A stretch of DNA of 64,000 nucleotides, from positions 1-64,000 of the IMG/VR virus record IMGVR_UViG_3300047510_001751; one strand, written 5' to 3'. Source of the stretch: a virus. The notes beneath the pieces were generated by a model. That model saw only the letters and a list, made by a program, of their open reading frames with translations. It was not told where the DNA came from and made no database searches. The translations under genes were made by a program, and so were the position numbers. Of this stretch, positions 1,297 through 58,208 are shown piece after piece (the first letter of the stretch is position 1; each line of letters opens with the position of its first letter).

Positions 1297-2907
1297 TTAA
1301 TATGCTCTAATTAAATTTGTTACTGATAAAGATGGCGAAGTTAAAGTAAAAGCTATCTGTAAAGCTTCGGGAACATTATCAGGAATAACATTTGGTTGGC
1401 AATCAACAGAAATAAAATCTTTGATGTTTAAATTTCCTGGGTCATATGTCACCAAAAATTCACCTTCGTGATCGTGTGGTTCAATAACATCATTTATAGT
1501 AGAATCATTTTTAGTTGTAACCGTAAAGCTAACAGCAGCATTATTATACAAAGTTTTTTTAAAATTATCTGCTAAATCGCTACCACCTCCACCAGAATCA
1601 TAATTAGGTTGTTTAATCGGAGAAACATCATCAGCAAAAGGAAGAATGCTATTAACGTTTAATCTTCCACTTGTTCTAATATTTATTAAGTCGGACGTTT
1701 CTGTTTCTCCTGATGCTCTTGATCTTAATTTTTTGGCAGATGTAAACCAAGGTTTTCCTACACCATGAGAAGCAGCACTTGTTTGAATAGGTGAGTGTGT
1801 TCTTGCTGGCTTTGATCCACCAATGACTGCCAAAGCATATCTACCATAACCTTGAGTAAATGGACTATTAGATGATCCAACCGTAGCTTGATTACTATTT
1901 TCCCCTGTTTGATCTCCCCAATAATTAGCAATACCAGTGCTTTCTAAAGGACCATCTGGATCACAATTATTATTAAAACAGAAGTCATTTGGACATCCAT
2001 TGTTTTGTCTGTATGTCTGAGATAAGAATATCTGTGGGTTATCCCAAACACCAACACCCGTTCCAGGCTGAGTGTCGGAATCATTTTTATTGATTGTTTC
2101 GTATGTTCCTGGGTGAACGTGCTGAGGCATATGATTTCTGCCTAGCTTACGAGGGACAACGTATACAGATCTCACATCAAAACCACCAATAAAAGTTTGT
2201 CCTTCTATTGTTCCTTGAAAATATGAATTTCCTATGGCATCAACTGTAATAGTAACATCTCCACCGCCGCCAATAAGAGAACCACTAATTGTTAAAGTAT
2301 CTCCTTGAGTATAACCTTCTCCTTTATCTTTAATAGCTACAGAATATGCTCCATCACTTGCAACAATAACATTAAATATTGCTCCTTCTCCAGTTCCACC
2401 AGTAGAAGAAATATTTTTAAATACTTGAGTAGACCCACCAGCAGTTCCAGATCCAGTTGTTGTGTACGAAGCAATAAAACCGTCTGGATCTGGAGTATAG
2501 GTAAAATTAATATCAGTTGTAGCAAAAAATGATGATGGTGGTCCTAAATCACCGTCATCCCCCATAAATTCAGTAACTATGTTGGCAGCAGCACTATCAT
2601 CAATAGAAGAAGGAGCTATGCTAGCACTGGCATTAAAATGCTCTGGACCAATATCGGCAAGAGTTTTTTGATTAACAATCGGCAATCTGAAAGTGCCTTC
2701 ATAATCTGGAAATGATCCATCAAATCCAGTACCACCGTAACTGTCTTTTAAAATTCTAGCTAATAGAGGATATTCATCAGCTCTTAATTCAGCTCCATTA
2801 CATAATAGCCACCCTTTAGGTATTCTTGTTAATTGGCCAGTCCAAGGCATTACCGAACCAATCGGTAATGCCTTTTGTGTTCTTACAGCGTTGTAATTTC
2901 TTGGCAT
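1297..2907 (-). CDS. Tail-collar domain protein (short tail fibre/baseplate-like)
   Basis: PIGSVMPWTG...PKGWLLCNG...YPLLA...YGG...FRLP tail-collar motif; Gly-rich body. Confidence 0.8.
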   Translation of the reverse strand: MPRNYNAVRTQKALPIGSVMPWTGQLTRIPKGWLLCNGAELRADEYPLLARILKDSYGGTGFDGSFPDYEGTFRLPIVNQKTLADIGPEHFNASASIAPSSIDDSAAANIVTEFMGDDGDLGPPSSFFATTDINFTYTPDPDGFIASYTTTGSGTAGGSTQVFKNISSTGGTGEGAIFNVIVASDGAYSVAIKDKGEGYTQGDTLTISGSLIGGGGDVTITVDAIGNSYFQGTIEGQTFIGGFDVRSVYVVPRKLGRNHMPQHVHPGTYETINKNDSDTQPGTGVGVWDNPQIFLSQTYRQNNGCPNDFCFNNNCDPDGPLESTGIANYWGDQTGENSNQATVGSSNSPFTQGYGRYALAVIGGSKPARTHSPIQTSAASHGVGKPWFTSAKKLRSRASGETETSDLINIRTSGRLNVNSILPFADDVSPIKQPNYDSGGGGSDLADNFKKTLYNNAAVSFTVTTKNDSTINDVIEPHDHEGEFLVTYDPGNLNIKDFISVDCQPNVIPDNVPEALQIAFTLTSPSLSVTNLIRAY

Positions 2908-2908
2908 T

Positions 2909-5900
2909 TTAGATTTCCATTAACCACCAACCTTGTTGTGAAGGAGGAGCACCAGTAGTAGTTCCATCATAATTTAATGCTCCAACGTATACTAACCCAA
3001 GACCAGCATTTGGAGATTGTACTACTAGTTCACCACCATTATATGTAGAACCGATAGAAGGTCCTTGTCCAGAATTTGTACTATCACCCTGTACACGAAC
3101 ACCAGTTGGTCCTCTAAATCTCAAGGAAATATTGTATGTTAGGTTTCCACCAACATCAACTACTCTAATAATATCACCTGTTGTTGGATTTTGTGGAAGC
3201 TTGACAATAGTATCGGCACTAGGAGCAACGAAGTAATTCACATTAGATACAGCCTCGATAACATCTTCTCCACCACTGACATATACCCACTTTCTGGCAC
3301 CAGATGGAGTAAAGAATCCAGTAACTCCAGCAAAATCCATTGATCCATCGTTGCCGATTTCAAATAGTTTTTGCTCTAGAGTTCCACCATCACCATCACT
3401 AACAATCTTGTTGACTGTTAGATCGCCACCGTTAATCTTAACATCGCCAGAGAATGTGCTGAGGCCAGTTCCTTCTACAGATAGGGTTCCAGAAATTGTT
3501 AGGTTTCCAGTGCTATTCTGTAAGAATAGTTTCTGACCAAATACAAGTCCGCCGTCGCCATCATCAACAGGATTATTGTCAGTAATTAGTAAATTACCGC
3601 CTCTCAATGTAGTGTTGGATGTAGAACCTTGTACAGTAAATCTATCACAGTTAGCACCACCAATACCAAGATCACCAAAGATACATGTATTGCCAGTAGC
3701 ACTATCAACAGCAAACCTTTGACTGGTTCCATTAGTAATAACTAAACGTTCTTGGTTTGTAGTTGTTGATCCAATTAATGTAAATGTCTTATTAACATTT
3801 AAAGTTCCAAGAATGTCAGTATTGCCTGTGGTTGAATCTACTACAAATACTTCAGTTGCTGGATTACCACCATCATTGATAACAAATTTCTGGTTTGTCG
3901 TTTGGTTGATAGCATTTACATTAGCTAGTTCTCCGTCACTAAATCTCAAAATATCGCCAGAAATTACAGATCCGCTGAATACACCAGTTTGAATTGTCTG
4001 TATAGTTCCAGAACCTGGATTATTCAATCCATTTTCTTCATTAATAAAACTTACATCATTTGCTAGAGTATATTTAACAAGAACAGCATTATCTGGGTGA
4101 TCAGTTCTTAGGTAACGATAAGTTCCAGTGGAAGATCCTACATTTGGTCCAGAAACCATTAGCTGATCGCCAGTAAGAGCATTTCTTGCTCTTCGGACTT
4201 TAATTCTTAGTGGCAGATCGGAAATATCATTTAAATTAGTTAATTCAATAACTTGTACAAGTTCGCTATATTGTTCGCCAACTGGAGAAGCTGTAGTATT
4301 TTGACCTGTTACTTGGAGAGAACGATCAATAAGGACATAATCACCAATACCAAATTGATTGAAGCTTTCCTCCCCAATAGGTAAGAAATATTCTTCTGGA
4401 TTAGCTGGGTTAACTTGATACTCACTTCCGCCCCATAGTGATAGACCTTGAGTATCAATGGTTCTTTCAATTTCAACTTTTTTGAAAATATCGACATTTA
4501 AATTATCAATATTTCCTCTGGAATGTAATGTAGTAGGAGTTCCAAAAGATCCTCTTCTTACAGTGAAAGCACCAGCGTTTAAACCACCAATTAATGTAAT
4601 ATCACCTTTAATTTCGGCGGCGTTTTCAGCAACAAGAGTATTGTTAATCGTCGTGAAACCACCAGCTCCACCAATCTTTAATCTTGTTACAGACGTAGCA
4701 AAATCAAGTGTAGAAACGTTTCTACTGAACATCTCAAGTTCTCTAGAATTAACTTGGAACTCAGAAAATCCAGTGCCAGGAGGATTATATGTACCAATTG
4801 TTAAATTACCATCAATTTCAGTGAATCTATTTTTAATATTAAATAAACTTTCTACGTTACTGAGTTTTCCATAAGCACCACCCATTCTGATAATGCTGGT
4901 GTTAGTATTTGTTTCAGATACTGTACCAATATCAATTAAGGAATTAGTAGATCCACTATGAATCCAAAGTTCTGTAATTGGAGCAAATCTACCAACGTTT
5001 ACTACTTGAGTATTAGAAACATTACCAACGTTAATTGTCTGATCTTCATTTGTAATATTACCTATGTTTAACTCTTCAGCAACACTAAAAGCATTTACAG
5101 AAGTAGCAACCGTATCAATTAAATTAAACGCTGTGCTAGTAGTAGTTAATGATCCACCATTTATCGCCAAATTAGATTCTAATTTAAGATCATTTGTAAT
5201 TCTAGCATTACCCTTGACTACAAAATTTCTATCTAATTCAGCTAGTGTAGTGTTAATACCAATTCTACCACCAACATTTGAAGCAGTTACTGCAGTTGTT
5301 GAAGCAACACGAAGAACAACTTCGTCGTCTGGAGTATTTACTCTCGGGTCAAAACCTACAATGAAAGCATGATCAACTTTATTAAATGTTCTATTTGCTA
5401 GAAGTGGGTTATCAATAAAATTATTTGGTGTTGTACTTAGAGTTCTACCACTAATGAAAGCATTGCCAACTACGTCTAAGTTTGCTCTAGGATCAACTGC
5501 TTCGGATACAAATCCTTCTAATTGATCCCCACCACTACCATGCTTTGCTCTAGAAAGAGTGTTAATTCCTAGCTTAAAGTCACCATAGTTATCAGTATTT
5601 GTTCTAATTGTTTCGGCACCTAGAACTCCAAATTCTTTCCAAGAATTTCTAGAAATTTCAATTTTCCAGTCAGCTGGAATAATTGTTGGATCATCAATAC
5701 TGGTAGAAATAATAAATGGAGATGTTACTTGGAATTTATTAGTTGTAACTGTGCCAACTGTTCTTAGTCCATTTAAATTAGCAAATCTTCCAGTAAATCC
5801 AGTAATTTTTAATTTAGAACCTTGGACAATTCCAATATCAGCATTAGTTACACCAACTTGTAGTGTAAATTCAACAACATTAGAACCAAGAGCAGTAACA

Positions 5901-14406: not shown

Positions 14407-14483
14407 TGGTTCCTCTGTCTGGGAATTGAACCCAGTTTCCAACTCCCTTGTCGGGGTGTCCTTACCAATAGACTACCAGAGGA
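14407..14483 (-). ncRNA. tRNA-like RNA with aberrant anticodon arm and encoded CCA
   Basis: TCCTCTG/CAGAGGA acceptor + A + CCA; D-arm with GG; T-arm CTGGG-TTCAATT-CCCAG; no canonical 7-nt anticodon loop. Confidence 0.75.
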
Positions 14484-55668: not shown

Positions 55669-56031
55669 TTACATACGAGAGTAACAGACACGAACAACCC
55701 CTGATCCTGGAGAAGCGATTTTAGTAAACGCTCCATAAGATAGATCAAGAGATCGTCCACCCACAAATGGTCCACGATCATTCACACGAACAATGACAGA
55801 TTTGCCATTCGATTGGTTAGTCACCCGCAACCTAGTTCCGAAAGGAAGGCTTCTGTGTGCTGTTGAATGACCGTAAGCATTATATCTTTCTCCGTTAGCG
55901 GTGGTTAAACCGTGATATCCATCACCGACTCCATAATGTGAGGCGAGGGAACATCCGCTCGCTGCCTTTGCTTGAAGGGGTGCCAGTCCTACAGTGGCAA
56001 TGGCTAGAATTGAAAGTGTTTTAAAAAGCAT
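55669..56031 (-). CDS. rlpA: RlpA-like (double-psi beta-barrel) lytic transglycosylase
   Basis: Signal peptide; ASHYG...TANGE...TAHRSLPFGT...VRVNDRGPF...LDLS. Confidence 0.93.
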   Translation of the reverse strand: MLFKTLSILAIATVGLAPLQAKAASGCSLASHYGVGDGYHGLTTANGERYNAYGHSTAHRSLPFGTRLRVTNQSNGKSVIVRVNDRGPFVGGRSLDLSYGAFTKIASPGSGVVRVCYSRM

Positions 56032-56238: not shown

Positions 56239-56430
56239 ATGCCGAGAGAGTGGAACACTCCGATTAGAGAGCCATGGAATGCTCCTATTCATAACACATT
56301 AAAAGCAATAGATAACCACACTCAAGAATACTTTAAGAGTGGCGATAAATGGCATCTACAAAAAGCAGATCAACTTAGGCAATATTTACACGAGTTAAAA
56401 ACCTGGATACATCATCAAGAAGGAAGATGA
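56239..56430 (+). CDS. Conserved cyanophage hypothetical protein
   Basis: MPREWNTPIREPWN; ATAAATA upstream. Confidence 0.75.
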   Translation: MPREWNTPIREPWNAPIHNTLKAIDNHTQEYFKSGDKWHLQKADQLRQYLHELKTWIHHQEGR

Positions 56431-56666
56431 AATTTAATTTAACCAAACTTATTTTTATAGTTTGTTTTTCTACTGTTGGATTTGTTGGGTTAAATTTCAT
56501 TGCCTGTAATTTCATGTTACCAGGATCAATCATTAGTGCTAATGTTCTTGGGGGATTAAAAAACCCCCCTCCTTTAGATTGTAAGGAATCTGAAAGAAGA
56601 GGGTATGAAACTTTATTAACTATTCTCACTACAGTAATTGCTCTACGAGCTAAGGTAGAAGATTAA
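56427..56666 (+). CDS. Small membrane protein (possible holin-like)
   Basis: Two hydrophobic segments; convergent with lysozyme gene. Confidence 0.6.
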   Translation: MKFNLTKLIFIVCFSTVGFVGLNFIACNFMLPGSIISANVLGGLKNPPPLDCKESERRGYETLLTILTTVIALRAKVED

Positions 56667-57133
56667 GAAACCCAGAGTTTACCCTCTGCCTTTCTTCTTC
56701 TAAGTAGTCCTGCCTCTACATTACTACCAGGATTACGATACATCTCTAGAACTTTAGGAACGTCGTTCCATTTTTGATCTTTTAAGATACGAGTGATAGT
56801 ATTAAAATTCCCAGAACCATAGAAATTAGCGCCGAGATTATAAGCAAAAGATAATAATGCTCCACGTTGATTGTCATTCATCTCACTCCAATAAGGAATT
56901 TTTTGTAGGGCAGGTAAGAATCTATGCTCAACATCATACATCAGATATTCATCTGCTTGCTGTTGAGTAATAAACTGACCTAACATAAAGGTAGATCCAT
57001 CTGGTCTACGAGTGCTTCCCCATCCTATTGTAATAGGAGCAGCACCTGTTTTGGGATCTGGGTATGCTTTTAAATGACAACCTTCAAACTCTTTGATTAG
57101 TTCTAGCCCTCGATGAGGAATAGAACTTACTAC
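56663..57133 (-). CDS. GH24 phage lysozyme domain, reachable by -1 frameshift from the upstream peptidase
   Basis: GLELIKEFEGCHLKAYPDP...ITIGWGST...ALLSFAYNLG...GLLRRRKAE; catalytic E/D/T lie upstream of first ATG (56986). Confidence 0.88.
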   Translation of the reverse strand, partial: VVSSIPHRGLELIKEFEGCHLKAYPDPKTGAAPITIGWGSTRRPDGSTFMLGQFITQQQADEYLMYDVEHRFLPALQKIPYWSEMNDNQRGALLSFAYNLGANFYGSGNFNTITRILKDQKWNDVPKVLEMYRNPGSNVEAGLLRRRKAEGKLWVS

Positions 57134-57139
57134 TTTTTT
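57099..57139 (-). promoter_or_regulatory. Candidate -1 frameshift signal (A AAA AAG + 5 nt + hairpin)
   Basis: Heptamer 57139-57133 then TAG TAA; AGTTCTA-TT-CCTC-ATC-GAGG-GC-TAGAACT. Confidence 0.78.
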
Positions 57140-57834
57140 ACGGCGTCAAAAACTCTACCCCAACCATCATTGCCTTTTGGGCACCATCTACGTGCCAACT
57201 CAGATCGTTTGTATACCGCTCCTCTACCATTGGTAACAGGACCCGTATAGCCATCGTTAAGGCTTCCATACGGGTCATGAACGATGTAGTCTCCAGCGGG
57301 GGTCTTCCCAATCACAACACACATGTGGCCTCCTGTAGGAGCACTGAGAGGTCCCCTGTGAAGGATGCCAATTACCATTGGACGATTTGCTGCTAATTCT
57401 TTATCGAGATCAGCAAATGACAAATCATATTTGAATGCAGATTTAATACCATACCCCATCAAGACACGAGTTTGTACAGTATGATCGGTTGTATCCCCAG
57501 CAGCAAATACTTTCTGAACATAAGCATCGTCACCTTTAGGACCTTTCAGTGTGCCTGGTTTAAAATATTCAAGACACATAGCACAAGCAGAACTATTACA
57601 AGTTCGTTGAGCATCACGATAATTATCTGTTTGAGGGAACCAAGGGAAGTTTTCAAGAATATTAGTTGCTTGTTTTTGAACTGATGTTCTGTATGTTTTA
57701 ACCCAACCAGAAGTATCTTCTAATTCTTCTGGGGCTGATTTTTCCAAAGCATGAAAAAACATTTCAACTGCTTTTACGTGATTGGGATTCTTCTCATCAA
57801 AATGTTTAAAGAAGTTATGTAAATTAATTTTCAT
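57130..57834 (-). CDS. C39-like cysteine peptidase (endolysin N-terminal part)
   Basis: QTDN...RTCNSSACAM; GGHMCVVIG; YIVHDPYG (Cys-His-Asp). Confidence 0.82.
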   Translation of the reverse strand: MKINLHNFFKHFDEKNPNHVKAVEMFFHALEKSAPEELEDTSGWVKTYRTSVQKQATNILENFPWFPQTDNYRDAQRTCNSSACAMCLEYFKPGTLKGPKGDDAYVQKVFAAGDTTDHTVQTRVLMGYGIKSAFKYDLSFADLDKELAANRPMVIGILHRGPLSAPTGGHMCVVIGKTPAGDYIVHDPYGSLNDGYTGPVTNGRGAVYKRSELARRWCPKGNDGWGRVFDAVKK

Positions 57835-58169: not shown

Positions 58170-58208
58170 AATAAAAAACCCCCATATAGGAGGTATTTAT
58201 CTATTCAA

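Follow-up and report, generated by a model that had tools for sequence, protein, structure and literature searches.

In Escherichia coli, the dnaX gene of the replication clamp loader yields two products with a common N-terminus, tau and gamma, at a site that combines the slippery heptamer A_AAA_AAG, a nearby 3' stem-loop and a single tRNA-Lys(UUU) (PMC5009743). Insertion sequences of the IS3 family (OrfA/OrfAB of IS911 and IS3) likewise shift by -1 on A_AAA_AAG, close to where the upstream open reading frame (ORF) ends, and have a downstream ORF that lacks an efficient start, a 3' structure and a 0-frame stop beside the shift site (PMC4066793). Here, we analyse a lysin locus in 64,000 nucleotides (nt) of viral DNA (positions 1 to 64,000 of IMG/VR record IMGVR_UViG_3300047510_001751, hereafter the window) from a T4-like cyanophage of 190 kb and 37% GC. 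At this locus, the ORF of a C39-like peptidase of 234 amino acids (aa) ends on A_AAA_AAG and a stop codon, a putative stem-loop follows, and a complete GH24 lysozyme without a start codon of its own occupies the -1 frame. We put at roughly 80% the probability that a programmed -1 ribosomal frameshift of the dnaX/IS3 type makes both the 234-aa peptidase and a 390-aa peptidase-lysozyme, a reading drawn from sequence and its comparison with relatives.

Every feature of the dnaX/IS3-type cassette that was tested at the sequence level was found at this locus. The polarity is opposite to that of dnaX: there the shift leads via a stop to the short product and the 0 frame to the long one, whereas at the cyanophage locus the shift would give the long product, and the gene is one for a phage cell-wall hydrolase as opposed to a clamp loader. 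In contrast to the IS3 family, which is mobile and uses a pseudoknot or three-way junction, the cyanophage gene is non-mobile, its structure is a simple hairpin as far as tested, and its downstream domain is an enzyme that also exists alone in relatives.

Among phages, the tail assembly chaperone G/GT is a conserved -1 frameshift whereby a single locus yields a short protein and a form extended at the C-terminus; it differs from the cyanophage lysin in gene, function and slippery sequences, and is routinely annotated, whereas the lysin shift is not. Two polypeptides that share a domain are also made from one lysin locus in the case of Ms6 LysA (mycobacteriophage) and the clostridial CD27L and CTP1L. 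These arise by in-frame internal initiation and share a C-terminus, in contrast to the recoding and shared N-terminus proposed here. No report of a frameshifted phage lysin, or of such a frameshift in a cyanophage, was found in the literature covered, outside of which most subscription journals lie, and a 2016 review (PMC5009743) contains no case from a cyanophage, a lysozyme or an endolysin. While the proposed mechanism is a textbook one, the gene class would be unexpected, and the signal is conserved across many lineages and has gone unannotated even in the model phage S-PM2. If confirmed, a phage cell-wall hydrolase would be added to the few genes of bacteria and phages known to be decoded by a programmed -1 frameshift.

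The features of the junction are the following, with all locus coordinates given as positions of the window on the minus strand:

57834..57130, minus strand: peptidase ORF of 234 aa in the 0 frame, from the ORF listing, with the 3' end GCC GTA AAA AAG TAG TAA
57148-57146, minus strand: TGA closing the -1 frame upstream, which leaves 13 nt for a productive shift
57145..56663, minus strand: -1 frame ORF with the complete GH24 lysozyme (P0001), 160 open codons, stop at 56665-56663
57139-57133, minus strand: slippery heptamer A_AAA_AAG, in the X_XXY_YYZ phase of the 0 frame, GT[A AAA AAG]
57132-57130, minus strand: 0-frame stop TAG, directly 3' of the heptamer
57132-57128, minus strand: spacer TAGTA, 5 nt, between heptamer and stem-loop
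57127-57099, minus strand: putative stimulatory stem-loop AGTTCTA-T-TCCTC-ATC-GAGGG-C-TAGAACT, with 7 + 5 base pairs, two 1-base bulges and a 3-nt loop
57085-57083, minus strand: predicted catalytic Glu21 of P0001, in the FEG motif
56986-56984, minus strand: first ATG/GTG/TTG in the lysozyme frame, Met54 of P0001

A preliminary description of this DNA had set out the heptamer, the hairpin, the upstream TGA and the first start at 56986; this anatomy was confirmed in every detail by re-reading, and the product lengths of 234 and 390 aa given there are correct. The heptamer is the sole slippery run inside the 13-nt productive overlap of the window locus. When folded with RNAfold, the stem-loop has an energy of -13.5 kcal/mol (z-score -2.7, with 2 of 200 dinucleotide shuffles folding equally well), and its 3' arm codes for Leu-Glu-Leu of the lysozyme N-terminus. 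By the stability of the 45 nt downstream, the shift site ranks third among the 99 AAAAAAG sites genome-wide. Copies of AAAAAAG in the window are at chance level (44 observed against 36 +/- 6 expected), and the significance of the site therefore rests on comparison with relatives. Upstream of its heptamer, dnaX has a Shine-Dalgarno-like stimulator. At the cyanophage junction, a GGGG run 11-13 nt upstream of the heptamer was set aside as a candidate for such a stimulator, since it is fixed by the protein sequence (the Gly-Trp-Gly part of its Gly-Trp-Gly-Arg codons).

The translation of P0001 begins RRKKVVSSIPHRGLELIKEFEG..., and after a slip the lysozyme frame would be read from codon GTA at 57133-57131. 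P0001 matches Pfam Phage_lysozyme (PF00959) along the whole profile (positions 1-125 of 125, 83.3 bits with a cut-off of 22.3, E 2e-23). Its residue 10 aligns to residue 6 of the solved 149-aa lysozyme 9kbq (E 2e-16), in which the Glu of the P0001 FEG motif is aligned and identical. The full-profile match and the 9kbq alignment indicate that the whole GH24 domain starts right after the shift site. The first possible start codon lies past Glu21, Asp29 and Thr39, which we take to be the counterparts of the catalytic Glu11, Asp20 and Thr26 of T4 lysozyme. A gene-caller start at 56986 hence leaves a stump of 107 aa from which the catalytic Glu, Asp and Thr are missing. The truncation of the lysozyme by gene callers, already remarked on in the preliminary description, recurs in the RefSeq annotation of S-PM2 as a 72-aa 'putative lysin' stump. 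Both halves belong to PHROG 3617, a 405-aa family that covers them together, with the peptidase ORF matching positions 1-234 and P0001 positions 244-404. The fused reading would correct a systematic annotation error, made in S-PM2 and likewise by metagenome gene callers in many relatives, and would be required for expressing active cyanophage lysin.

Relatives were gathered from annotated phage genomes and two scans of viral contigs, giving 122 distinct related loci. The search for the lysozyme motif overlooked one frameshift-type locus, L122 (which reads LIKEFED), and this was counted separately. The loci fall into the following states:

42 loci: -1 lysozyme and heptamer, no ATG/GTG/TTG before the catalytic motif
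15 loci: -1 lysozyme and heptamer, GTG or TTG as the only possible start, in most cases within the 3' stem arm
1 locus: L122, a further locus of the frameshift type
8 loci: heptamer and own ATG
12 loci: ATGA- or GTGA-overlapping start, no heptamer
19 loci: in-frame fusion
3 loci: separate genes
22 loci: no GH24 gene downstream, no heptamer

The layout of the window is common to S-PM2 (71% nucleotide identity), 56 other distinct loci and L122. In S-PM2, the peptidase ends GAT GCA AAA AAG TAA and a start-less lysozyme lies in the -1 frame. S-SRM01 has kept the heptamer and has a lysozyme with an overlapping ATG, ACG-2014f has a single in-frame fusion of 405 aa, and DSL-LC02 and DSL-LC03 encode peptidase and lysozyme as separate genes. 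All loci without a start codon at the junction carry the heptamer. Where the -1 overlap occurs in the absence of a heptamer (12 loci), an overlapping start is present, ATGA in 11 and GTGA in one (L146). The -1 frame relation was dropped as independent evidence, since it could be inherited, and an offset of -1 is equally imposed by ATGA coupling.

The heptamer is present in 65 of 65 unique loci classed with a -1 lysozyme (AAAAAAG in 64 and AAAAAAA in 1), and also in L122. Elsewhere in the same peptidase ORFs, Lys-Lys is spelled AAA AAG in just 5 of 71 pairs. The codon before the heptamer is GCA in 34, GTA in 27, ACA in 3 and GAA in 1 of these loci, so that its third base is A in 65 of 65. This AAA AAG spelling, together with an A-ending codon across four amino acids, points to synonymous constraint at the heptamer. 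A 0-frame stop follows the heptamer directly in 49 of 57 start-less loci. Of the 57 classed frameshift-type loci, 52 have a productive frame overlap of either 10 or 13 nt. Downstream, the -1 ORF is intact in all 63 relatives whose contig spans the gene end, extending 145-152 aa past the LIKEFEG motif, which argues that the lysozyme is under selection.

A frame broken at a homopolymer could instead reflect an assembly or sequencing error, or a decaying lysozyme pseudogene. One missing A is a common sequencing error, and loci with seven A do exist. However, the six-A run is found in 57 distinct loci, drawn from dozens of independent assemblies, and two genome records of S-PM2 give matches of equal length, which rules out the assembly indel that the preliminary description had named as fatal to its reading. 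In the case of a pseudogene, the downstream ORFs would not be expected to be complete in 63 of 63 relatives with conserved catalytic motifs. We regard error and decay as effectively refuted.

A strong hairpin is found in every start-less locus by RNAfold, with core stems beginning 2-8 nt 3' of the heptamer across relatives. The classes of loci were compared in a fixed 60-nt stretch using dinucleotide shuffles, which gave the following mean stem z-scores:

No start: -4.45
GTG/TTG: -3.0
Own ATG: -0.9
ATGA-coupled: -0.56
In-frame fusion without heptamer: -0.61

The stem is thus restricted to start-less loci and their close in-frame derivatives. There are 50 distinct stem arm pairs, and native stems have a mean of -16.5 kcal/mol compared with -9.1 for chimeras whose 5' and 3' halves were taken from different loci. 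The control is conservative: 9% of the chimeras fold at least as stably as the average native stem, since many loci belong to the same stem family. An attempt to fit one consensus structure to all 57 junctions (alignment A2) failed, as the stems fall into at least three registers (column sums 96, 99 and 102) offset by 3 nt, or one codon, with 23, 19 and 11 sequences; the registers were therefore analysed one by one. RNAalifold predicts 11 and 9 pairs in the two larger registers, with compensatory double changes at 5 and 3 of these (for example UA to CG in 6 sequences, GC to AU in 4 and AU to GC in 5). The 11-pair prediction comes from the 19 sequences of the window's own register. The 3' arm falls within conserved lysozyme codons (G-V/L-E-L) and the 5' arm within an otherwise free linker, which evidently changes so as to remain complementary, judging by these alignments.

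Natural fusions of the two halves provide a further line of comparison. Two variants carry seven A in place of six, L052 (one sequence on four contigs, the other three being L105-L107) and L108, which is of a different stem family. These loci read GTA AAA AAA GTA GAA, which places the lysozyme in frame and gives exactly the predicted shift product (...KK-V-E...). They represent constitutive fusions in nature, although a homopolymer miscall is possible. In-frame fusion is also seen in a marine clade around ACG-2014f. The A7 variants, the ACG-2014f clade and the span of PHROG 3617 over both halves together indicate that the fusion is viable. The -1 frameshift of the dnaX/IS3 type proposed in the preliminary description thereby finds support in each of the comparisons suggested there: heptamer conservation, stem covariation and in-frame fusions.

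The same fusion protein would result from transcriptional slippage, whereby RNA polymerase adds one A in the six-A run to give some mRNAs with seven. Polymerase slippage underlies the dnaX gene of Thermus thermophilus (PMC5009743), and A7 variants in DNA occur naturally, as L052 and L108 illustrate. Such slippage would require neither the G at position 7 of the heptamer, nor its phase in the 0 frame, nor a downstream RNA stem spaced 5-8 nt away, yet all three are conserved. Runs known for useful polymerase slippage are also longer than six A. Transcriptional slippage is on this basis a very unlikely source of the fusion.

Some of the fusions may represent a variation on the same device. In the fusions of ACG-2014f (L005:1941-2040, also L086-L088) and L109, A_AAA_AAG TCT GA is retained with a stem after it, such that a -1 slip would read GTC TGA and give a peptidase-only form, with the polarity of dnaX. 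The heptamer, the -1 stop and the stem together invite the speculation that a reversed, dnaX-like device operates here; the stem z-score of ACG-2014f is only about -1.5, and relatives at 73% identity have no heptamer.

The peptidase half is the part common to both proposed products, and two of its regions are of note:

57633..57274, minus strand: span of the predicted papain-type catalytic residues, Gln68 at 57633-57631, Cys79 at 57600-57598, His170 at 57327-57325 and Asp187 at 57276-57274
57834..57688, minus strand: N-terminal module of about 47 aa, KINLHNFFKHFDEKNPNHVKAV...W..YR, outside the catalytic core, from homology and the structural model

The peptidase ORF matches Pfam Peptidase_C39_2 (PF13529; 42.3 bits with a cut-off of 24), which, along with the Phage_lysozyme match of P0001, bears out the earlier assignment of a C39-like peptidase and a complete GH24 lysozyme. 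It also matches the 'endolysin' PHROG 10051. A profile-free search found 821 peptidase homologues, and in an alignment of 93 of these (32-56% identity) Gln68, Cys79, His170 and Asp187 are invariant, which in light of the papain-like fold of the model suggests that they are catalytic. A search of PDB sequences with the peptidase profile gave no match, and a fold search was used instead. The AlphaFold model (pLDDT 91.6) has as its best PDB fold match a C39-like peptidase from Bacillus, 3erv. Further matches include the phytochelatin-synthase-like peptidase Alr0975, the C39 domains of PCAT1 and ComA, staphopain and pseudomurein endoisopeptidase; the top ones (3erv, Alr0975, PCAT1 and staphopain) have a probability of 1.0 and TM-scores of 0.47-0.60. 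Among the entries of a large protein database, in-frame fusions link the peptidase domain to GH24, to GH19, to GH108 with a peptidoglycan-binding domain, and to LysM. The fold matches and fusion partners are suggestive of a cell-wall peptidase role. A putative assignment to the endolysin class is supported, indirectly, by the matches to 'endolysin' PHROGs and the natural fusions with GH24, GH19, GH108 and LysM. Both products would probably act on peptidoglycan and serve host lysis.

In the model, the N-terminal module comprises a helix (residues 17-33) and, after it, a linker of low confidence. This module also occurs at the N-terminus of the stand-alone lysozyme of phage DSL-LC03 (L003:2102-2767; 51% identity, E 1e-12), and no separate N-terminal module is found on frameshift-fed lysozymes, whereas separately encoded ones carry their own. 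The DSL-LC03 match thus suggests that separate lysozymes have their own copy and that frameshift-fed ones borrow that of the peptidase. The module may serve in targeting, wall binding or pairing. At other loci, ATGA-coupled GH24 and GH19-like genes bear, as judged by eye, another N-terminal module of about 55 aa.

The lysozyme might also be made as a separate protein, either from a non-canonical start (ATT, ATC or CTA near LIKEFEG) or by reinitiation after the TAG. An Ile-Pro (ATT CCT) is conserved before G-[LV]-E-L-I-K in many loci, S-SRM01-type lysozymes begin just two codons ahead of this Ile-Pro, the 3' stem arm of the S-PM2-like family contains GGAG-like runs, and the ATGA-coupled relatives show that coupled translation is accepted in the family. 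On the other hand, none of the near-cognate codons is kept in all three stem families, and the candidate codons and GGAG runs are buried in a stable stem that should block initiation. Separate initiation would, moreover, leave unexplained the synonymous constraint on A_AAA_AAG, the restriction of the stem to start-less loci and their close in-frame derivatives, the A7 in-frame variants, and the missing N-terminal module of start-less lysozymes. We therefore consider it improbable, if somewhat less so than polymerase slippage.

According to the proposed frameshift, ribosomes would reach A_AAA_AAG with the stem-loop 5 nt ahead, at the entrance of the mRNA channel. Most would stop at the adjacent TAG and release the 234-aa peptidase. 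A fraction would slip by -1, with two tRNA-Lys(UUU) re-pairing on AAA AAA or, alternatively, with the P-site tRNA alone slipping on A_AAG while the stop codon occupies the A site. Slipped ribosomes would then read ...AVKK-VVSSIPHRGLELIKEFEG... to yield the 390-aa peptidase-GH24 lysozyme. As the lysozyme has no translation start of its own, muramidase activity would depend on the slip. That ribosomes slip, and with what efficiency, is something we infer from these sequences, as we do any ratio of the two products, which the preliminary description took to be fixed. Shifting at A_AAA_AAG is particularly frequent when AAA and AAG are decoded by the same tRNA-Lys (PMC5009743). Synechococcus sp. 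MIT S9451 has a single tRNA-Lys, with anticodon UUU and no CUU, among 43 tRNA genes, and none of the 12 tRNA genes of the window phage is for Lys.

Several points weigh against a frameshift. The heptamer is common in a genome of 37% GC, such that a single copy is not significant by itself, and the hairpin of the window locus departs only moderately from chance (z -2.7). The heptamer is also retained in a clade that has its own ATG (L002, L056, L058 and L062) and is thus not strictly diagnostic of shift dependence. Ile codons (ATT/ATC) and GGAG-like runs near the lysozyme N-terminus make weak non-canonical initiation conceivable. In addition, MIT S9451 serves only as a representative marine Synechococcus in place of the actual host of the window phage, and no published measurement of frameshifting at A_AAA_AAG in cyanobacteria was found.

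Beyond producing two proteins, the frameshift might serve as a regulatory device, whose efficiency sets the dose of muramidase relative to peptidase and hence influences the timing or completeness of lysis. We hold this idea to be doubtful at present, though less remote than separate initiation. Through the hairpin, efficiency might respond to conditions in the infected cell such as lysyl-tRNA supply, temperature or light, and the short and long forms might act as a complex through their shared N-terminal module. It is a matter of speculation that the family has flipped the polarity of such a device at least once, in ACG-2014f and L109. The junction offers a ready reporter for frameshifting in marine Synechococcus, where translation control is little studied.

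On an unrooted peptidase tree (FastTree), the frameshift state extends throughout the non-marine part, where it accounts for 57 of 105 rows and is mixed with peptidase-only, ATGA-coupled and own-ATG states; the tree requires 31 state changes. Only 29 of 117 inner branches are well supported, hence no direction of change is claimed. The pattern would fit an old frameshift arrangement that has been repeatedly replaced, or an exchange of modules between phages. The family constitutes a natural series on one gene tree (frameshift-dependent, ATGA-coupled, own-ATG, fused, separate and peptidase-only) that is useful for studying the origin and decay of recoding signals. Six loci (L059, L060, L065, L066, L068 and L079) have, in place of GH24, an ATGA-coupled gene with an ISHESGGG motif after the peptidase, and no heptamer; from its sequence, this gene looks like a GH19 'chitinase'-type wall hydrolase.

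The surroundings of the locus in the window include the following:

58178-58194, minus strand: terminator-like hairpin and T run, between nrdB and a PDDEXK-like gene
56427-56666, plus strand: 79-aa ORF with a hydrophobic N-terminus, converging on the lysozyme 3' end
55669-56031, minus strand: RlpA-like DPBB lipoprotein (Pfam DPBB_1, E 5e-24)
14407-14483, minus strand: 'tRNA-???' called by ARAGORN

The ATG of the peptidase overlaps the stop of the upstream PDDEXK-like gene (ATGA). This link and the terminator-like hairpin suggest that the PDDEXK, peptidase and lysozyme genes may form their own transcription unit, for which no convincing promoter was seen. No holin was identified. The 79-aa ORF is conserved in S-PM2 (L001, minus-strand ORF 2844-3194) and has no PHROG match; as a predicted membrane protein beside the lysin, it could be a holin candidate. 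The RlpA-like lipoprotein lies just downstream of the lysin locus, likewise in S-PM2, and is by its domain match another wall-related neighbour. The 'tRNA-???' has a two-base anticodon call (ca) and is located inside the phage tRNA cluster.

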